Position numbers and translations under genes: made by a program
NCBI GenBank assembly: GCA_964354805.1
Contig: CAYHBD010000007.1
Location: forward strand, 1-30,044
Reading direction: 5' to 3'
DNA: 30,044 bases
DNA from: an uncultured archaeon
GTDB lineage: Archaea; Iainarchaeota; Iainarchaeia; Iainarchaeales; GCA-2688035
In this document: piece after piece, positions 4,973 to 22,795 of the stretch
How positions within the stretch are numbered: the first letter of the stretch is position 1
Layout of the letters: every line of letters starts with the position of its first letter
The notes under the pieces: generated by a model
The model's input: only the letters and a program-made list of their open reading frames with translations
Told to the model about the DNA's origin: nothing
Database searches by the model: none

Positions 4973-5299
4973 CTATTTTCTTTGCTGTAGGTCTTTTACG
5001 ACCCCCCAAACTCTTGGCCCGAGTTTTATTGCAAGCGCTTGTTCCAGATCGCCGCTGCTTACACCATACCTTTTTGCTATTTTAGAGAAAATTCTTGCCG
5101 CTCCACTCTTGCTTTCAACGTGAATAAATGCAGCAACCAATGCCCTGACATGGGAAGGTTTTAGCCTTTTTGCAAGGGAACCAAGCCGCCTCCGATGCAA
5201 GTGCAACTCTGCCTCGGAATGGGCAGGACCATAATATTCCCGACGAACTATTTTCTTATTCTTATTAATATTTCCGGCAGTTGTTCTTTTCTTTAGCAA
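4973..5299 (-). CDS. Hypothetical basic protein
   Basis: 108-aa ORF, TTG start preceded by GGTGA; lies between tRNA-Arg and argS; no recognised motif. Confidence 0.55.
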   Translation of the reverse strand: MLKKRTTAGNINKNKKIVRREYYGPAHSEAELHLHRRRLGSLAKRLKPSHVRALVAAFIHVESKSGAARIFSKIAKRYGVSSGDLEQALAIKLGPRVWGVVKDLQQRK

Positions 5300-5312: not shown

Positions 5313-5356
5313 TTTTCTTTTGGTACAGATTTTCTTTTCCTAAAAGAAAATCTGTA
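5313..5356. repeat. Family B hairpin repeat at the tRNA-Arg 3' end
   Basis: TTTTCTTTTGG then the perfect inverted repeat TACAGATTTTCTTTT-CCT-AAAAGAAAATCTGTA (5324-5356). Confidence 0.85.
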
Positions 5357-5357
5357 A

Positions 5358-5449
5358 CGGACCCGGAGGGATTCGAACCCTCGACCTACTGCTGACCCCC
5401 TTTGGAAAGGTAGAAGGCAGTCGCCCTATCCAGGCTAGGCTACGGGTCC
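5358..5449 (-). tRNA. tRNA-Arg(TCT) with 17-nt intron at 37/38 (5394-5410)
   Basis: GGACCCG/CGGGTCC acceptor, ACTGC/GCAGT anticodon stem, GAGGG-TTCGAAT-CCCTC T arm; BHB motif with CTTC/GGGG helix and TAC/TCA bulges; no CCA. Confidence 0.95.
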
Positions 5450-5494
5450 ATTATAATAAAATAATGCGTAAGGGGAATTAAAAGTTTTGTTTTT

Positions 5495-5923
5495 TCATTT
5501 TATTTCAAATATTTCGCTGAATTTCCCTTTTTCCGCTATTTTGCCCTGCCTGCTGTCAAGCAGCCATACGTGCAGCTTTGGATCAGAGAATTCCCTTGAA
5601 AGGAACTTTTTTGGCGCAACCCTCTTGAATCCGTTCAGTTTTTTTCTCCTGTAGAATTCAAGGCCGTCGTGGGGCAGAACGAAAACGAATTCGTCAACCT
5701 CGCTTGCGTAAGGCAGCTTTGCTTTCAGCTTGCCCTGGCTTGGCCTTGTTAAAACCTCTATGCCGATTGTTTTGTTTTTTGCCTGCACAAGAAAATCAAA
5801 CCTGCCCTCTCTCTCACTGCCATGCTTTTCAAGCAGGACTGTTTTTTCCGGGGCAATGCTCAAAATAGCAGGGTTATTGACCCGCATTTTGTTCAATTCG
5901 TGGAATACAACAAGGTGCATCAA
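5495..5923 (-). CDS. PD-(D/E)xK-like nuclease-fold protein
   Basis: 142 aa; RFDFLVQAKNKTIGIEV resembles the D...ExK core; KLPYASEVDEFVFVLP downstream. Confidence 0.6.
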   Translation of the reverse strand: MMHLVVFHELNKMRVNNPAILSIAPEKTVLLEKHGSEREGRFDFLVQAKNKTIGIEVLTRPSQGKLKAKLPYASEVDEFVFVLPHDGLEFYRRKKLNGFKRVAPKKFLSREFSDPKLHVWLLDSRQGKIAEKGKFSEIFEIK

Positions 5924-6109
5924 TTTAGTGAAAGCATTTCCGTTGCATTCAATTGGCAGCTATTACCACCAAATAATCCATTACTGTTAATTTATATTTA
6001 AACCTGCCTGTTGCCCAAAAAACAGCAAAAATCCCTAAAATTAACTAATTCACTGCCAAAAGTAAAGTTTTTATATGCTTTTGGGGCTATATTTCTTACA
6101 GGGTTTTTT

Positions 6110-6283
6110 ATGGCTGAAGGCGGTAATACAGCGGAAATAATGGTTGCACTAGTGGTAGTTGTAGCCTCTTTTATGTACGTTTACGATGCCCTGACAAGGA
6201 TTTCGCATATGGATGTTTTGCTGGCTGTCCTTGCATTCGGCGGCGGCCTGGTTTACTTGTTCAGCAACATTTGGCACAAATAA
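6110..6283 (+). CDS. Small two-helix membrane protein
   Basis: ATG at 6110 gives 57 aa (MAEGGNTAEIMVALVVVV...) with two hydrophobic segments; TTTATAT box about 35-40 nt upstream. Confidence 0.6.
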   Translation: MAEGGNTAEIMVALVVVVASFMYVYDALTRISHMDVLLAVLAFGGGLVYLFSNIWHK

Positions 6284-6417
6284 TTGATGGCAATTTTCTG
6301 TTTTTTTTTGTTAAATTCCGTTAATTTTGCAGTTAATGAAATTTTAGGGCAATTCAAGAGGCATTTTCCCAAAATTTTAAAACTGATAGTTTTTTATTCC
6401 GGTTAATCTAATTCTGT

Positions 6418-7176
6418 ATGAGCAATATGCCTGAGAGCGCAGCTGGCAAAAAAATGCGCGCCATTTTGCAGCATTTGAAGCAAAACCCAGCGTACATTGT
6501 AATTATTGCATTGATTGCACTAGCCATTCTTTTCCTGTGGCAGGCAATCCTTTTCACTGCAATTACACTGCTTGTGATAATTGTAATCGCGGTTGCAGCA
6601 ATGAAAATCAAGTACAGGAAGCCGAGCTTAAAAGAACTGCAGGCTCAAAAGAACCAGCTGCTGGCTGCAATAAAGATTGCTGAGCAACGCTACCTGCAAA
6701 GAAAGTTGAGCGAACAGGACTTCAGCAAAATCTTCAAGGAAAAGCAGCAACAGCTGATTAAAATAGAGGCCCTGATTGACCAGCAATACAGCAAGGAAAA
6801 GGGCGCTGCTTTAAGCGATGAACTGCGCGATGTTGAGGCAAAAAAAAGGCATATTCTGCAGGGCCTGCTTGAAGAGAAGAGGAGAATTGTAAAAGAAATG
6901 GATATCGCTGAAAAGCGCTATCTCCAGAGAAAAATTGACGCTGCAACATACCAGGCGCTGGTGCAGAAAAACCAGGAAAAGCTGATTGAAGCAGAAGCCC
7001 AGATAAAGCAATTGTACGCCGAAGGCGGAGTCCAAAAGGTAATGCAGGGTTTAAAACAACAACTGCACGGCATGGAACAGGAAAAGAAAAAGCAAAAAAA
7101 AGAACGGGAAAAAAGTGAAAAGGAAAAAGAGCGGGAAATAGCCGAAGAAATAACGCAGCAGGTGATGGAGAAATAG
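6418..7176 (+). CDS. Membrane-anchored coiled-coil protein with internal duplication
   Basis: Two N-terminal TM segments, then a Q/E/K-rich helical region containing two IAE(Q/K)RYLQRK repeats. Confidence 0.8.
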   Translation: MSNMPESAAGKKMRAILQHLKQNPAYIVIIALIALAILFLWQAILFTAITLLVIIVIAVAAMKIKYRKPSLKELQAQKNQLLAAIKIAEQRYLQRKLSEQDFSKIFKEKQQQLIKIEALIDQQYSKEKGAALSDELRDVEAKKRHILQGLLEEKRRIVKEMDIAEKRYLQRKIDAATYQALVQKNQEKLIEAEAQIKQLYAEGGVQKVMQGLKQQLHGMEQEKKKQKKEREKSEKEKEREIAEEITQQVMEK

Positions 7177-7209
7177 CTACAACTAGGTCAGCAATCAGCC
7201 GAGAAACAT

Positions 7210-7713
7210 CTATTGCTTTTCTGCATTTTCACCCAATGCCTGTTGCAACAGCTTTTGCGCAAATTTTTCCGCTGGCCTCAGCTTTTCTGAATCCAGTTCA
7301 AAAATGCTTTTGATTGTCAGGCTGTCAACAACTGTCGCGCCGGCTGTTGCAAGAATGTTTCCCATTCTTTTTATTGTTGTGCCGGGCAGAACAGTGCATG
7401 TTGCAAACAGGGCAAAGCGCTTTCCCTTTATATTCTGCAGCTTCCGCAAATAAGACACAATTATCGGGCTAGGGCAAAAGCCCCAGACTGGGGTTCCAAT
7501 CAAAACAAGGTCAAAAGCATGCACATCAAGCAAAGGGTCAGCCAAAGGCAGGTCTTTTTCGCTTTTCTTATACATGCCGGCCTTCAATTCATCAACAGGC
7601 TTCACTTTGAATAATGTTACCTTATGCTCTTTTGCAAAAAATTGCTGCAGCGCCAGGGCAAGCTTTTCAGTCCTGCCTGTTTTGCTGTAAAAAGCGATTA
7701 AAATGTTCATCAT
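7210..7713 (-). CDS. Flavodoxin-family protein
   Basis: ILIAFYSKTGRT FMN-binding loop, LIGTPVW, FALFAT. Confidence 0.9.
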   Translation of the reverse strand: MMNILIAFYSKTGRTEKLALALQQFFAKEHKVTLFKVKPVDELKAGMYKKSEKDLPLADPLLDVHAFDLVLIGTPVWGFCPSPIIVSYLRKLQNIKGKRFALFATCTVLPGTTIKRMGNILATAGATVVDSLTIKSIFELDSEKLRPAEKFAQKLLQQALGENAEKQ

Positions 7714-7734
7714 GGCACCATCCAGGCAAGATTT

Positions 7735-8637
7735 TTACTTGAAAGCATTTAAAAAATTAAACACATTCAAAGGCAAAGCTGTTAAATCATAACCGCCCTC
7801 CAGAATAGCAAAGCAGGGAACGCCCTTTTCTTTTGCTTTCCAGTTTATGACTTTCCCGATTGCGTTGAATGTAGCATGATTTTCAATCGCAAGTTGGGTT
7901 CCAACAATGCCGGCATCGGATGCAAAAATGTCAAAGCCAGCTGAAACAGCCAGCAATTGGGGCTGAAAGAGGTCAAAGCATTCAGTGAAAGTTTTCTCAA
8001 ACAAGCACAAATATTGCCGGTCATTCAAGCCGGCTTCCAATGGAACATTCCTCACATGCGCATTGTTTTCGCTTTCAAAGCCAGTGCCTGGAAAAGTGAA
8101 GGCAGGGTCTTGATGCAGGGAAAGATAGAAAACACTTTTATCATTGTAAAAAATTTCCTCTGTTCCATTGCCGCAATGCAAATCGAAATCAACTATCATC
8201 GCCCTGCCAATTCCTTTCCTGCGCTGCATTGCCCTGACTGCAAAAGCAATGTTGTTGAAATAGCAGAAGCCGCCGAAGAAATTGCTGCCTGCATGGTGCC
8301 CAGGAGGCCTTGCCAAAGAAAAAGCAAATTCCTTTTCACCCAGCTCGGCTGCTCTCAATGCTGCGCCGCACGCAAGCTTGGCAATGCCAAAAGTGTTGCG
8401 GTTGAAAACATTGTCGCCTGTTGAAACAGCTTCCCTGCTCAATCTCTTCACATCATTTATCAGGCTCTGCTTATGCACAAGCAGCAAATCTTTTTCATTC
8501 ACTTTCAAAGGCTGTTCAAATTTCTTAAACCCTTTCTTTTGCAAAAAATCAATTATTGCAATTAACCGTTCCTTTCTCTCCGGATGCATGCCAGTTTCAT
8601 GCTGCAAAAATTTTTCACTGCAAACAATTGCAACCAA
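7735..8637 (-). CDS. Histone deacetylase / AcuC-AphA family amidohydrolase
   Basis: HPE, RPPGHHAG, GFCYFNN, DFDLHCGNGT, SLHQ, AGFD and EGGY motifs. Confidence 0.95.
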   Translation of the reverse strand: MVAIVCSEKFLQHETGMHPERKERLIAIIDFLQKKGFKKFEQPLKVNEKDLLLVHKQSLINDVKRLSREAVSTGDNVFNRNTFGIAKLACGAALRAAELGEKEFAFSLARPPGHHAGSNFFGGFCYFNNIAFAVRAMQRRKGIGRAMIVDFDLHCGNGTEEIFYNDKSVFYLSLHQDPAFTFPGTGFESENNAHVRNVPLEAGLNDRQYLCLFEKTFTECFDLFQPQLLAVSAGFDIFASDAGIVGTQLAIENHATFNAIGKVINWKAKEKGVPCFAILEGGYDLTALPLNVFNFLNAFK

Positions 8638-8649
8638 TCAGGTTCACCG

Positions 8650-9744
8650 TTAAATTCTTCCAAAACTAATAACCAAAAAGATGCAGTAAATTATGACTAG
8701 GGTAAATGACTCAATTCTCTCAATTTTGTAATTGTTTCTCAGGAAAACCAAAAAAAGCCAGCTAATGCCCACAAAGAATAAAAAGTCAATTAACATGGCA
8801 TTGAAAGAAAAAGAAATAGGGTTTGCTATTGCAGCCAAGCCTCCGACCAGAAAAACATCGCTTATGTTGCTTCCAATAAGGTTTCCAACCATTATTGCAG
8901 GAACACCTTTCCTCAAAGAAGTGATTGCAACAGCCATTTCAGGCAGGCTTGTTCCAACAGCAACAAAAACAGTGCCAATCACCCACTGGTTTATCGGCAA
9001 AGCAGATGCTGCTGTCACCAGCAGGTTTGCCCCAAAGAAAATGCATATTGCCCCGATTGCAATGAAAAACAACTGTAGCAAAAAGAACCTGATTGCATTA
9101 AACTCTGCCTTCACTGCCTTGTCAAGCCCTGTTAAAAAAAACCCGATTCCATAAACAGCGTAATGGAAGCGCTTATTCCTTACATTGCGCCAAAGCGATC
9201 CGCTGAAGCCATGCTGTTCAATTCGCTCTTTCCTGATTAAGTCAGCGTATTCCTTTAGATACCTGCTGAACTTTTTCTCGTGCACTATTGCCTTTTTCGT
9301 TGAAATAAAATACGCCAAATAAACAAAAAACAGCAAAAGCAGGATTATTCCTTCCATTCTGCTCAGCAAGCCATTCAAGCAGAATAACGAGAAAAGCACT
9401 CCGCTTGCAAACACTACAAAAACAACCTTGCTGTACAGCTCTTTGTCAACAGCAATCGGAACAAACAATCCGGCCAAGCCAAGAATCAATGCAATGTTCG
9501 CGATATTGCTTCCGACAATGTTTCCAATTGCGATCCCGCTGTTGCCGTAAATCGCAGCTGTAACGCTTGCACCAACCTCAGGCATTACTGTTCCAGTTGC
9601 AACAATAGTCAGGCCAATGACAAACTCGCTCAAGCCAAACTGCCTTGCAAGCCTGGCAGCAGCGCTCACCAGCCAGTCAGCGCCCTTAACCAGCAAAGCC
9701 AAGCCAAACAAAAAAACCAAAACAGTAAACAACAAGCCCTGCAT
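8650..9744 (-). CDS. Ca2+/Na+ antiporter (CaCA, YrbG-like)
   Basis: Two alpha repeats GTVMPE...GNIVGSNIAN and GTSLPE...GNLIGSNISD; multiple TM helices. Confidence 0.92.
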   Translation of the reverse strand: MQGLLFTVLVFLFGLALLVKGADWLVSAAARLARQFGLSEFVIGLTIVATGTVMPEVGASVTAAIYGNSGIAIGNIVGSNIANIALILGLAGLFVPIAVDKELYSKVVFVVFASGVLFSLFCLNGLLSRMEGIILLLLFFVYLAYFISTKKAIVHEKKFSRYLKEYADLIRKERIEQHGFSGSLWRNVRNKRFHYAVYGIGFFLTGLDKAVKAEFNAIRFFLLQLFFIAIGAICIFFGANLLVTAASALPINQWVIGTVFVAVGTSLPEMAVAITSLRKGVPAIMVGNLIGSNISDVFLVGGLAAIANPISFSFNAMLIDFLFFVGISWLFLVFLRNNYKIERIESFTLVIIYCIFLVISFGRI

Positions 9745-9795
9745 TGAAAATCAGATAAGAAAAAAGGTTTAAGTGAATAAAAAGCTTGCGATTGT

Positions 9796-9879
9796 AAAGC
9801 CATTTTCTTTTGATACAGCTTTTCTCGCGAAGCCACTTTTCTTTTGATACAACTTTTCTTTTTCTAAAAGAAAAGTTGT
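9796..9879. repeat. Family B tandem units plus hairpin at the tRNA-Leu 3' end
   Basis: Two AAGCCA(C)TTTTCTTTTGATACA units; the second continues into ACAACTTTTCTTTT-TCT-AAAAGAAAAGTTGT, ending on the discriminator base. Confidence 0.85.
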
Positions 9880-10008
9880 GCGGGAGGGCGGATTCGAACC
9901 GCCGAAGCCACTAAGGCACCAGCCAACTGCAGCTTTTTCCCAAGGCTTTTTTGCCTTGCAAAAAAGGCTTCCTCAAGCTGGCGGAATAGACCGCTATCCG
10001 ACTCCCGC
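9879..10008 (-). tRNA. tRNA-Leu(GAG) with 46-nt intron (9925-9970)
   Basis: GCGGGAG/CTCCCGC acceptor, CCAGC/GCTGG anticodon stem, long variable arm, GGCGG-TTCGAAT-CCGCC T arm, A discriminator; mature length 84 nt. Confidence 0.92.
9933..9970. repeat. Family A hairpin repeat inside the tRNA-Leu intron
   Basis: CTTTTTCCCAAGGCTTTTTTGC-CTT-GCAAAAAAGGCTT. Confidence 0.9.
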
Positions 10009-10051
10009 GTTAAAACAATTCAGGCAAAAAAAGGATTTAAAGCTTTGCAAC

Positions 10052-10558
10052 TCATTTTGCTTTCTCAATTTTCACTATTTTTATCCAAAATATCAGAGTT
10101 TTCCCTGCAAGCGGGTGATTAAAATCAACTATAATTGAATCATCTTTTATTTCTTTGATTACGCCGTTTACGCCTGTTTCGCTGTGGACAGGCAGGCCGA
10201 CAACCATTTTGTCTGGCTCGGCAAACTGGCTTTTGGGCAGCTCTACAACCTTTGTGTTATCGTATTGCCCGTAAGCTTTCTCTGCCTGAATTGTCACTGT
10301 TTTTTCTTGCCCCTCTTGCATTCCAATAACAGCAGAATCAAATCCTTCAATTGCCTGTTTTGAGCCAACAGCAAAGGAAAATGGCTTTCCTGCTTTTTCG
10401 CTTGAATCAAAAACGTTTCCATCCAGCAGCTTGCCCTCATATTCAACGGAAACAGTGTCTCCAGCAGCAACTGTTGTTTTACCTGCGTTTGGTTGCTGGG
10501 CGCAACCGCTGAGCAAAACTAAAGCAATTAAAAGAAATGAAACAAAAGCTTTCTGCAT
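10052..10558 (-). CDS. slyD: FKBP-type peptidyl-prolyl isomerase (SlyD-like) with lipoprotein-like signal
   Basis: VEYEGKLLDGNVFDSS, AEKAYG, VDFNHPLAGKTLIF; N-terminal LLSGC lipobox. Confidence 0.9.
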   Translation of the reverse strand: MQKAFVSFLLIALVLLSGCAQQPNAGKTTVAAGDTVSVEYEGKLLDGNVFDSSEKAGKPFSFAVGSKQAIEGFDSAVIGMQEGQEKTVTIQAEKAYGQYDNTKVVELPKSQFAEPDKMVVGLPVHSETGVNGVIKEIKDDSIIVDFNHPLAGKTLIFWIKIVKIEKAK

Positions 10559-10605
10559 AACTTAATTGCTTTAAGAAAACAATTAAAAAAGGTAGATAAA
10601 AAGAA

Positions 10606-10850
10606 CGCGGGGGACGAGATTCGAACTCGCGCTTCCGTGAGGAAACACGCTGATTGGAATTTGGGTTTCTTTTCCCAACAGCCTTTTTAACAAAAAGGCT
10701 GGCGAAAAAAGTTCCTTTTCCCAAGGCTTTTTTGCGTGAGCAAAAAAGGCTTAGCCGTTAGGCATTTTTTCCTTTTCTTTCCCAAGGCTTTCTTTTTCTA
10801 AAAGAAAGGCTTTTCCAGGCGTGCGCATTAGACCGCTCTGCCACCCCCGC
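10606..10850 (-). tRNA. tRNA-Ser(GGA) with 161-nt intron (10652-10812)
   Basis: GCGGGGG/CCCCCGC acceptor, CACGC/GCGTG anticodon stem, CT-GGA-A|A loop, long variable arm, GCGAG-TTCGAAT-CTCGT T arm, G discriminator; mature length 84 nt. Confidence 0.9.
10666..10812. repeat. Three family A hairpin repeats inside the tRNA-Ser(GGA) intron
   Basis: Units at about 10666-10702, 10714-10752 and 10771-10812, each TTTCCCAA followed by a hairpin ending AAAGGCT(T/G). Confidence 0.9.
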
Positions 10851-10950
10851 ATTAAGGAAAAGAAGGCAGGGAAAAGCCTTTAAAGGAAATTTATTTTTGC
10901 AGTGGCGAAAGCGAAATAATAAAAAGGGGGAAAGGATTATTATTATTGCA

Positions 10951-12036
10951 ATGAATAAAAAGCAGAATGGCAAAAACACGGCGATTTGGGGTCCTGACGA
11001 GTGGCCTGCTGAAACATTCTTTTGCATTGCTGTTTCAAAAGATGGAAAAACAGTGAAGCAGGAGGGCAAGCACTATAAGGGATTTAACCGCTTGGTTGAC
11101 TCTTCTGCAATCAGCTGGGTGAATTGCTGCATTGATGATGTTGCTGACAATATTGAAGATATTGCCAGGCATTTTGGTTTCAGGAAAGAGCTGGCTAGAG
11201 ATTTGCTGACGCATAGAAGCAGTGCTTATGTTGACATGGGCGACGAGCTTGGATTGCTGCTGCCTGCAGTGAAAGTAAGGAACCTGCTTGTGCACATTTC
11301 ACCAATTTATATGCTGATCCGGAAGAACCTGGTTTTGTCTGTTCACAGCAGGAGGGTTACAAGGTGGATTAATTTCTTCAATTATGCTGAAACCTTTATG
11401 AGAAAAATTCCGCCGAATGCGCTGTTTAATGACAAGATTACGATGATTTTGATAAGGCTGTTGGGCAAGAATGACGAGAAGAATTTCGAGAACCTGCGCA
11501 TAATTGAAGAGGAAGGGGACAGAATAAACAGGATGTTAATCGACAGTGGGTCGCCCAGGACAAAACTTGGGGCAGAAATATACAGAATGAAGCACGCCTT
11601 GATCAGTTACATGGGCGCCTTATGGGCTTCGATGGATGTCTTGAACGATCTGCGTTACGGCGACAGCGAGTTAATCACTGATGACAGCGCTTTGCTGCAC
11701 GAAATCACGATTATTGCAAGCGATCTGACAAGCCACCTTGCTTTGGCAGAGCACATGAGCGAGGTGCTTGCATCAGGCCTGGAGGTGCTGCAAAGCATTT
11801 ACAACAACCAGCTGCAGGTTCTGAACAACAGGCTTTCTTTGACTGTAACCTGGCTGACTGTGCTTGGAACAGCGGTTCTTGTTCCAAACACGCTTGCTAC
11901 AATTTATGGAATTCCTGCAATCAGCGAGCACGCAAACTGGCAGGACATAATTTTGCTGTTGGTTGCCTCAACAGTAATCAGCGCGCTTGCGGCATACTTT
12001 GTAATCAAGAGAATGCTGCCAAAAAAAGTAGAGTGA
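10951..12036 (+). CDS. CorA-family divalent cation transporter
   Basis: Long soluble helical domain plus two C-terminal TM helices (NNRLSLTVTWLTVLGTAVLVPNTLATIYG); ATG 10951 preferred over TTG 10897. Confidence 0.85.
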   Translation: MNKKQNGKNTAIWGPDEWPAETFFCIAVSKDGKTVKQEGKHYKGFNRLVDSSAISWVNCCIDDVADNIEDIARHFGFRKELARDLLTHRSSAYVDMGDELGLLLPAVKVRNLLVHISPIYMLIRKNLVLSVHSRRVTRWINFFNYAETFMRKIPPNALFNDKITMILIRLLGKNDEKNFENLRIIEEEGDRINRMLIDSGSPRTKLGAEIYRMKHALISYMGALWASMDVLNDLRYGDSELITDDSALLHEITIIASDLTSHLALAEHMSEVLASGLEVLQSIYNNQLQVLNNRLSLTVTWLTVLGTAVLVPNTLATIYGIPAISEHANWQDIILLLVASTVISALAAYFVIKRMLPKKVE

Positions 12037-12065
12037 ATTTTTCTTTTGAGGGCAGGCTTTCCAGG

Positions 12066-12185
12066 GAAGCAATTTCTTTTGATGCATTTTTTCCTGGCGA
12101 AGCCCATTTTCTTTTGATGCTTTTTTTGTAGCGTTTTTTTCTTTTAATGCACGTTTTCTTTTTTTCCTAAAAAAAGAAAAAGTGC
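12066..12185. repeat. Family B tandem units plus hairpin at the tRNA-Ser(TGA) 3' end
   Basis: Three TTTCTTTT(G/A)ATGC units; the last runs into GCAC-G-TTTTCTTTTTTT-CCT-AAAAAAAGAAAA-A-GTGC (12149-12185). Confidence 0.85.
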
Positions 12186-12267
12186 GCCGGCGACAGGATT
12201 TGAACCTGTGTGTCCAGAGGACTCTCGGTCTCAAGCCGAGTGCGTTTAACCGCTCCGCCACGCCGGC
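12185..12267 (-). tRNA. tRNA-Ser(TGA), intronless
   Basis: GCCGGCG/CGCCGGC acceptor, CTCGG-CTTGAGA-CCGAG anticodon arm, long variable arm, ACAGG-TTCAAAT-CCTGT T arm. Confidence 0.95.
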
Positions 12268-13056: not shown

Positions 13057-13138
13057 TTTTGGGAAAAGCAGGCGCTCTATGCGATTGCGAAGCAATCGCC
13101 CTTTTCCCAAGGCTTTTTTCCCGTAGGAAAAAAGGCTT
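13057..13138. repeat. Composite palindromic element containing a family A repeat
   Basis: TTGGGAAAAG...CTTTTCCCAA outer arms, inner GCGATTGC-GAA-GCAATCGC (13081-13099), family A unit 13101-13138. Confidence 0.85.
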
Positions 13139-13826
13139 ATGCTTTTTGCAGCAAATAGTTTTTTTCAATTTGCAGGAAACCTGTTTTTGCCTTTGCTTCA
13201 ACAAAGTTCAGCAGGTTGTTGAATGCAATGAAAGAAATGCTGATTCCTGCCGCGAATGCGATTCTTTCAGTTGCTGTTATTGGGATAAGCATTGCCCATT
13301 GCTCTGCCGTCATTGGAACAGTCCAAGCAAAAATAACTGAGCCTATTGCGTGGGCAGTGAATGTTGCCCCAAGGCTGCGCAGGAACAATCGCTTGCTGAA
13401 CACTTTTGCAATCAACGGGATTGTCCAGAAGAGCGAGTAATACCATGCTTCCCTGCCAACAGGGTGCAAAATGAACAAGGCAATGCATGCGGTTGGAATT
13501 GCCGCGCTTGCTTTTGAGAAATTGTTCTTCTTGAGGAAAAATGCGAAGTAGAATGTTGCAAACAGCATTGGCAGCAATCTTAAAATATTCAGCAATTCAA
13601 TTGCTTTTCCTGCAATCGCGAAATCCAGCAATTCAGCAAAGAAAACAGAGGCAATTCCAATAACCGGACCGAGAAAAGCGCCTGCTATCGGGCCAATGAA
13701 CTGGAAGAAGGTAAAGTATTGGGCCGTGCTGCCAACAAGCTGAGAGAAATTGATTCTGCCGGCGATTAAAACAACTATAGTGAATAGAACAAAGAAAACT
13801 ACCTTTTTGAAATAGCTGTTTTGCAT
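13137..13826 (-). CDS. Integral membrane protein, ECF transporter S-component-like
   Basis: 229 aa from ATG 13826 (GGTGG RBS); about 6-7 TM helices; GPIAGAFLGPVIG resembles the S-component signature; directly downstream of folC. Confidence 0.65.
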   Translation of the reverse strand: MQNSYFKKVVFFVLFTIVVLIAGRINFSQLVGSTAQYFTFFQFIGPIAGAFLGPVIGIASVFFAELLDFAIAGKAIELLNILRLLPMLFATFYFAFFLKKNNFSKASAAIPTACIALFILHPVGREAWYYSLFWTIPLIAKVFSKRLFLRSLGATFTAHAIGSVIFAWTVPMTAEQWAMLIPITATERIAFAAGISISFIAFNNLLNFVEAKAKTGFLQIEKNYLLQKA

Positions 13827-22087: not shown

Positions 22088-22699
22088 ATGAAAAAAGAAG
22101 TTATTGCAGCAATCGCAATTGCATTAATTGCACTCAGCGGCTGCACCCAGCAGCCTGCTGCGGGAGGTGATGAAATGCCGACAATTAGCGGGAAAAATGT
22201 TCTGCTGATAATCGCGCCAAGCAATTTCAGGGACGAAGAACTGTTTGACACAAAAGCCGAACTGGAGAAAGCAGGCGCAACAACAATAATCGCAAGCAGG
22301 CAAACAGGCACAATAACCGGAATGCTTGGCGGAACAGCAAAGGCAACGCTTTCATTAAGCGCGGTAAAAGCATCGGATTTTGATGCCGTTGTTTTCATCG
22401 GGGGAGGAGGCGCAAGCGCCTACTTCAATGATTCAACAGCCCAGAAAATCGCAAAAGATGCAGCAGCGCAGGGAAAAGTGCTTGCAGCAATATGCATTGC
22501 ACCAAGCATTCTGGCAAACGCAGGCCTGCTGCAAGGGAAGAATGCAACTGCATTCAGCAGCGAATCAGGCAATCTTGAGGCAAACGGAGCAAACTATACA
22601 GGCCAAGCAGTGACAGTTGACGGAAAAATCATAACTGCAAACGGCCCGGCAGCAGCGAAACAATTCGGAAAAGAAATAGTCAAAGCGCTAGCGGGGTAA
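22088..22699 (+). CDS. DJ-1/PfpI family protein with lipoprotein-like signal
   Basis: FRDEEL, FIGGGGA, AAICIAP, IITANGP; N-terminal LSGC lipobox. Confidence 0.92.
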   Translation: MKKEVIAAIAIALIALSGCTQQPAAGGDEMPTISGKNVLLIIAPSNFRDEELFDTKAELEKAGATTIIASRQTGTITGMLGGTAKATLSLSAVKASDFDAVVFIGGGGASAYFNDSTAQKIAKDAAAQGKVLAAICIAPSILANAGLLQGKNATAFSSESGNLEANGANYTGQAVTVDGKIITANGPAAAKQFGKEIVKALAG

Positions 22700-22712
22700 A
22701 GAGACTTTTATC

Positions 22713-22794
22713 GCGAGCCGAAGGCGAGCAAATGACATCTCGAGCAACCGAAGGTTGCGAAGATGGCATAAATCACACTCGGATTTTTCCGAGT
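22713..22794. repeat. Cluster of three hairpins between the DJ-1 gene and tRNA-Ala
   Basis: GCGAGCC-GAA-GGCGAGC, CATCTCGAGCAACC-GAA-GGTTGCGAAGATG and ACTCGGA-TTTT-TCCGAGT. Confidence 0.75.
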
Positions 22795-22795
22795 A

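Follow-up and report, generated by a model that had tools for sequence, protein, structure and literature searches.

A putative triplex-type DNA repeat placed flush with tRNA ends, intron starts and stop codons in an Iainarchaeota genome

Repeats that fold into intrastrand triplexes, named BoxC, PIT and TM(ECO), have been described for E. coli and other bacteria (Holder et al. 2015, PMC4666352). The triplex of the E. coli TM repeat formed in oligonucleotides, but not in duplex DNA or in vivo, and in vivo evidence for intrastrand triplexes is sparse (PMC4666352). The locus analysed here also shares features with archaeal BHB tRNA introns and their transposition (Thermoproteales, the Caldiarchaeum integration model of PMC3293823 and the Asgard census 10.64898/2026.10.13.758758): introns at position 37/38 with a relaxed BHB, related introns in different tRNAs, gain and loss at strain level and duplicated tRNA ends. 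It differs from these introns in that the intron body is a genome-wide repeat that also occurs outside introns, and from the Caldiarchaeum integration model (PMC3293823) in that the duplicated ends do not enclose a recombinase gene. The origin of archaeal tRNA introns was stated to be open in a 2026 census (10.64898/2026.10.13.758758). A literature search yielded no description of this repeat family, and no family matching the repeat was found in Rfam.

The window, a stretch of 30,044 nucleotides, is one of the contigs of a 1.38-Mb Iainarchaeota (Diapherotrites) MAG that is 88.5% complete; proteins that cluster with those of the window carry the name Ca. Diapherotrites. In the region studied, the genes for tRNA-Arg(TCT), Leu(GAG), Ser(GGA) and Ser(TGA) are all located on the minus strand, with genes for ArgRS, an HDAC-family protein, a Na/Ca exchanger, FKBP and CorA as neighbours. 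Genome-wide counts are based on a hand-curated set of 45 tRNA genes (many false tRNAs were predicted by ARAGORN under relaxed settings) and, for CDS and stop codons, on protein genes called with a simple in-house model.

The repeat is dispersed, non-coding and 35–45 nt long, and consists of a pyrimidine arm, a loop, a purine arm, a short stem-loop turn and a mirror purine tract. On the tRNA strand, an outer arm and a C are followed by a T-tract, the loop, an A-tract, a G, the second outer arm, a 3-nt turn and a final A-tract, with arms of the type T3-5 C T2-7 or T4-7. The foot of the hairpin is a precise junction, the far end is variable, and copies are often chained into arrays via GAA mini-hairpins. 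The turn has a base pair of its own in 24 of 24 copies and accepts whole inserted foreign hairpins, as a fold-back would.

The gene for tRNA-Arg(TCT) (5358..5449, minus strand) has a 17-nt intron at about 5393-5409 without the element. Its trailer element (5313..5356, minus strand) comprises a hairpin (5324-5356; T4CT4, loop and A4GA4 plus outer stem), a 3-nt turn and a mirror tract (5313-5321). The tRNA-Leu(GAG) gene (9879..10008, minus strand) contains a 46-nt intron (9925..9970, minus strand) with one T6-type unit from intron base 1. Its trailer array (9803..9879, minus strand) starts from a hairpin that pairs with A73 (9849-9879), followed by a mirror tract (9837-9845), a GAA mini-hairpin on the plus strand (9827-9833) and a half unit with its tract at 9803-9811. 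The element is missing from the trailer of tRNA-Ser(GGA) (10606..10850, minus strand), and three units are found in the 161-nt intron of this gene (10652..10812, minus strand): unit 1 (10784-10812; T3CT4, tract A3GA4) begins at intron base 1, a second unit (10723-10752) is of the T6 type and a third (10679-10701) has tails on both sides. Both the Leu and the Ser intron lie at 37/38 with precise boundaries and form 3 of 4 central BHB pairs as judged by eye; an EndA-family gene is present in the genome. The intronless tRNA-Ser(TGA) gene (12185..12267, minus strand) faces the convergent CorA gene (10951-12036), and its trailer array (12038..12185, minus strand) fills the whole gap up to the CorA stop. 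The hairpin of this array (12149-12185) is a T7 variant (T4CT7) that pairs with G73; its mirror tract A4GA7 is located at 12134-12145, further tracts at 12107-12115, 12073-12080 and 12038-12047, and a linker GAA mini-hairpin on the plus strand at 12097-12103. An intergenic copy (13070..13138, minus strand, far boundary approximate) has a hairpin (13109-13138) flush with the stop codon of the ORF at 13137-13826. Folding z-scores were -4.1 for the Arg trailer hairpin, -3.1 for that of Leu and -1.0 for the whole Ser array.

In the preliminary description of this region, hairpins had been placed 0-1 nt behind the discriminator at Arg, Leu and Ser(TGA). This was confirmed, with a gap of 1 nt at Arg; at Leu and Ser, the spacing has to be corrected to an overlap, in which the hairpin pairs with the discriminator. 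The complementary outer stems reported there are present, although that of Ser is imperfect near the foot, and the flanks described as 1, 2 and 3 tandem units are real, except that Ser has a fourth, degenerate one at 12038-12047. A-rich sequence does follow each of the three trailer hairpins on the tRNA strand. Unit 1 of the Ser(GGA) intron carries the same core as the trailer hairpins, and the order of parts is the same throughout both supposed families, in agreement with the proposal of one superfamily; the trailers and the Ser/Leu intron units are one family. What was called a flank mirrors the purine arm and belongs to the element, a point missed in that description.

For the covariation analysis, hairpins were gathered regardless of the position of G in the tail. 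In this genome, T3C arms were always accompanied by A3G tails and T4C arms by A4G tails (8/0/0/16, Fisher p = 1.4e-6; covariation p-values are overstated, as the copies share ancestry), while the tails of T-only copies are uninformative for the mirror test. The distal run lengths of arm and tail also correlate (rho 0.75). Asymmetric arms fitted a mirror image in 12 of 14 cases and a direct repeat in 0 of 14, and the tail as a direct repeat was thus rejected. Across 151 genomes of the phylum, T3 arms were found with a mirror tail 94 times and with a shifted, non-mirror tail 4 times. Longer variants (T4CT7, found here at Ser, T3CT3CT and T4CT3CT4) obey the mirror rule, and tails change together with arms at orthologous sites in relatives. 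Since Watson-Crick templating would not be expected to yield a mirror image, selection for three-strand pairing appears to be the simplest cause, and the three-way covariation can be read as the signature of an intrastrand triple helix. Judged from these comparisons, it would represent unusually clean natural evidence of selection on a triple helix.

The tRNA strand has the class II (purine motif) order, whereas the opposite strand would correspond to the parallel pyrimidine motif. A conserved stem mismatch, C·C on the tRNA strand and hence G·G on the opposite strand, was observed in 12 of 24 genome copies and 35 of 119 cross-domain matches; the reverse was never found. On the tRNA strand, the linker loops of arrays read TTC 46 times and GAA once, which corresponds to GAA triloops on the opposite strand. 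The commonest linker, GC-TTC-GC, is not a C(UUCG)G tetraloop, but the complement of GCGAAGC, a stable DNA mini-hairpin (PMC13037366). Predicted DNA folding was more stable for the opposite (two-pyrimidine-tract) strand in 73 copies, compared to 5 for the tRNA strand. The G·G mismatch, the GAA loops and the predicted stability point to the two-pyrimidine strand, i.e. the DNA template strand, as the strand that probably folds.

A total of 108 copies were counted in the genome, while the two order-4 Markov controls gave 3 and 1. Introns of tRNA genes contain 15 of the 108 copies, 14 lie close to tRNA ends, 13 fall within called CDS and the remaining 66 are located elsewhere. The foot was flush with tRNA 3' ends 10 times (0.11 expected), with stop codons 11 times (2.6 expected), with start codons 0 times (2.9 expected) and, in inverted copies, with tRNA 5' ends twice (0.07 expected; three times with Trp). 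After addition of three degenerate copies by eye to these 10, a flush hairpin foot is carried by 13 of the 45 tRNA 3' ends; absence from other tRNA trailers had been named at the outset as a finding that would speak against the proposal. The foot was involved in 25 flush events and the tail end in one. An element was also observed 0-1 nt behind the ends of 16S, 23S and RNase P RNA, while the SRP RNA end has no flush copy; no location was obtained for 5S rRNA in the genome, and the results on rRNA ends concern 16S and 23S. The element is contained in 17 tRNA introns and 16 start with it; most long tRNA introns begin in this way. Enrichment at RNA 3' boundaries, as initially suggested, is strong, but the copies are not confined to RNase Z and EndA sites and most lie elsewhere.

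Syntenic contigs of close relatives with about 82-90% identity differ at the same sites. The Arg(TCT) trailer element is replaced by an unrelated cassette in relatives L314, L318 and L319, as is that of Arg(TCG) in relatives. The Leu(GAG) intron is precisely missing in L316, and in place of unit 1 of the Leu trailer, L316 (T3CT5) and L314 have other variants, each with its matching tail. The Ser(GGA) intron was found in five versions, with different content in L312, L314, L316 and L317. Other variants occupy the same position in the trailers of Ser(TGA), Trp, Val and Leu(TAA), e.g. a T4CT4 variant with an A4GA4 tract at Ser(TGA) in L314 and L237. The 5' copy at Pro(CGG) is missing in relatives. 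L237 lacks the intergenic copy at 13.1 kb and retains, at that site, a single copy of the imperfect 8-9 bp repeat that flanks it. Some copies sit between 14-20 bp duplications of tRNA end or exon sequence. These duplications resemble the scars of the integration model in PMC3293823, except that a recombinase is missing. The repeat is one family in which three tracts co-vary, the foot is precise and the far end variable, and copies at a given site are rapidly gained, lost or exchanged between close relatives.

The exact pattern was found in 14 of 41 relatives and in at least 117 GTDB stretches from many DPANN phyla, Clostridia, Omnitrophota, Margulisbacteria and Patescibacteria, as well as in 4 viral contigs. 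The outer stem, which was left unspecified in the search, pairs at 3-4 of 4 positions in 93 of 119 matches, and many archaeal matches are located in D-loop, anticodon or T-loop introns.

The best reading of these sequence data is a mobile or recombinogenic triplex-type DNA repeat that would work like BoxC or REP, but is a member of neither. We consider it probable that copies of a triplex-folding DNA repeat come to lie flush with essential sequence and that the RNA hairpin is a passenger. The single-stranded repeat would fold into an intrastrand triplex, likeliest on the two-pyrimidine strand with parallel T·A-T pairing; for introns and trailers, this would be the DNA template strand. A protein or a stalled polymerase may act at the foot, where copies would be inserted, replaced or trimmed. 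Copies would last where they are tolerated and so end flush against tRNA and rRNA ends, stop codons and intron base 1. In a pre-tRNA, a copy would be carried along as a passenger hairpin until it is taken out by ordinary RNase Z trimming or by EndA splicing. The repeat can be put forward as a concrete candidate for the source of archaeal tRNA introns: one dispersed repeat in 17 introns, 16 of which start with it, together with intron presence that differs between relatives, supplies a donor and a junction as well as alleles that can be tested. Against this reading, all 16 canonical element-bearing introns have the element start at an offset of about 0-2, which is tighter than tolerance alone easily explains. 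The absence of visible replichore orientation blocks in the single-contig relative G038 (inspected by eye, the origin position lacking) and of an RT or a tracking Y1 gene also weighs against it, as does the precedent of E. coli TM, for which no triplex was formed in duplex DNA or in vivo.

A second explanation, active targeting, differs from the passenger reading only in how flushness arises, and we regard it as rather unlikely. The 3' outer arm would pair with the last bases of its target, either an exposed 3' end of an RNA or a loop of single-stranded DNA, and some enzyme of unspecified type would join the element there, so that trailers and introns are made directly. The 16 of 16 intron starts and the flush copies at 16S, 23S and RNase P RNA favour it. 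Conserved tRNA bases (G73, G15 and, in G038, the whole acceptor 3' end of tRNA-His) take part in outer stems, with a matching 3' arm wherever stem and conserved bases overlap. In L237, the 5' outer arm is already present at the empty site. Individual sites are occupied by different variants in relatives. However, the matching 3' arm fits either target pairing or later compensatory change, which would produce identical pairing, the intronless Leu allele has no outer arm, and neither inverted 5' copies nor stop-codon copies are RNA 3' ends. The search for an enzyme also argues against targeting. An RT (PF00078, RVT_1) was not found in the genome (88.5% complete), and its two Y1 genes are ordinary IS200-like genes that carry no element copies. 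Y1 transposases were not found in the element-rich genomes G038, G001, G011 and G028 (one of them 99% complete), and no Y1 match was obtained among 2,511 ORFs around cross-domain copies. A Y1/RAYT mobiliser was rejected, as Y1 presence does not track copy number and Y1 genes have no copies. Around the copies, no recurring neighbour gene family was found except a relaxase cassette in related Clostridia, and a plasmid search with this cassette gave no match. More broadly, we tentatively raise the possibility, doubtful as it is, of a cross-domain mobile element defined by its triple-helix fold and not by its sequence, which would choose targets through pairing of its outer arm with the final bases of a gene or exon, whose mover is neither Y1 nor RT and which is the direct source of new DPANN tRNA introns.

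A host RNA role, in which the hairpin or U-tract marks a 3' boundary (via aCPSF1 U-tract termination or RNase Z/EndA processing) or protects the end, is improbable. All 13 trailers and all 16 intron starts have the element in the same orientation, the predicted RNA hairpin is stable, and the discriminator is followed after 5-7 nt by a U4CU4 tract; in archaea, U-tracts serve as terminators (PMC8716108). However, introns also begin with the same unit, and it is found within the 16S-Ala-23S-RNase P cluster; transcription would have to read through at these positions if the cluster is co-transcribed. This role also leaves the mirror tract, the G·G preference and the bacterial copies unexplained. 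In ENE-type RNA triple helices (MALAT1 type), the transcript contributes two U strands and a single A strand. The element has U4CU4-like and A4GA4-like tracts as well, but its transcribed strand contains one U and two A tracts, except in a few inverted 5' copies. In a pre-tRNA, the third tract allows only a purine-motif triplex, which cannot form in RNA (PMC4666352). The processing role suggested in the preliminary description was not supported for further reasons. The element is missing from 32 of 45 tRNA trailers, and the orthologous loci of close relatives lack it or have an unrelated cassette, while one relative lacks the Leu intron, which makes a required role unlikely. Stop codons also have a flush foot, as do tRNA 5' ends in the case of inverted copies, and neither of these is an RNase Z or EndA site.

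It is very improbable that the elements, with two consecutive U-tracts on the opposite strand, are terminators of convergent or antisense transcription. Such a function would suit Ser(TGA), which faces CorA, and the two-U-tract orientation is avoided within transcripts, as termination predicts (sense to opposite 14:1 in introns and 10:3 in called CDS). However, intergenic copies are unbiased with respect to the hairpin side (33:33), and a convergent neighbour was found for 1 of 13 element trailers, compared to 10 of 32 tRNAs without the element; 11 of the other trailers face same-strand genes and one a contig end. Convergent-gene terminators, which had been put forward as a possible refutation of the initial proposal, were rejected on this basis. 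An artefact of A/T slippage, or a simple palindrome family next to a flank that is A-rich by chance, would suit A/T-rich intergenic DNA and the T-only copies, but is refuted by the covariation counts (the tail G tracks the arm C, and the reversed control pattern occurs 0 times in 41 genomes) and the excess over the Markov controls, and can be dismissed as extremely improbable.

A MITE was rejected, as only one end of the element is precise and the duplications vary in length (0, about 3-9 or 14-20 bp), in contrast to the terminal inverted repeats and fixed-length target duplication of a MITE. Like REP/BIME with TnpA-REP and the ends of IS200/IS605 (PMC8266576), it has an imperfect palindrome, a conserved strand-discriminating mismatch and mosaic arrays, and shares with them a predicted single-strand fold and possibly a base-pair-guided choice of target. 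Unlike REP/BIME, it has a mirror third tract, variable outer arms and no GTAG-type foot, and no Y1 gene is flanked by copies or tracks them. With BoxC/PIT/TM it shares the class II order of pyrimidine, purine and reverse-Hoogsteen (mirror) purine, dispersed multi-copy occurrence, variable loops, loci that differ between close strains and the lack of a known enzyme. It is distinguished from them by its A/T-rich sequence (TM is G/C-rich), by an added outer stem with a conserved mismatch and by several co-varying arm types. While TM(ECO) is always intergenic without strand bias, the element is found in tRNA introns (14:1 sense), in genes and flush with RNA ends. Although it falls outside both groups by their defining features, the element is BoxC/TM-like in design and REP-like in its imperfection and arrays.

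The flanks of these tRNA genes are gene-acquisition sites. In L314, a DNA stretch from another genome, the interval between tRNA-Ser(GGA) and FKBP has gained a Fic-domain gene together with a small ORF (6989-8142), and another gene lies behind the Leu trailer.

A second multi-hairpin cassette, unrelated to the triplex element, is located behind tRNA-Ala(CGC) on the minus strand of the window (22680-22795), flush with the discriminator. Near-identical cassettes were found 3' of Arg(TCT) in L314 and L318 and 3' of Arg(TCG) in L339, whereas both trailers carry the triplex element in G000, the genome of the window.

The triplex element is enclosed by duplicated 14-20 bp tRNA 5' or 3' ends at Gly-GCC in G000 (C16:22977-23146) and in L121, L312, L314, L319 and L387; among the 5' duplications is a copy of the start of the D-arm in reverse complement. 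The turn between its purine arm and tail is the insertion point for a third hairpin family, observed in the Ser(GGA) intron of L317, in L314 (about 5140-5200) and in G000 (C16:138607, C16:93017 and C9:171050).

Several tRNAs of G000 feature structured GC-rich 5' leaders in place of an AT-rich promoter (C16:23076, C32:12812, C9:31624, C38:2269, C42:32258 and C9:4517), two of which, those of Ala-TGC and the TAT tRNA, are identical. At C42:64937-65023, G000 also contains a tRNA-like gene whose body is atypical; a repeat of the gene's middle section precedes it.

The same genome encodes two stand-alone IS200-type Y1 transposases (C35:572-1015 and C13:1391-1786), both with GC-rich terminal hairpins and without TnpB. 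Viral contigs L321-L324 harbour intergenic copies of the triplex-type motif, three near-identical and one related; the 100 nt examined on each flank contained no tRNA. In the Clostridia stretches L020, L022, L062, L065 and L077, the same motif immediately precedes nikA/mobC and a PF03432 relaxase gene. This site is likely an oriT region, and the motif may be connected with single-stranded DNA transfer.
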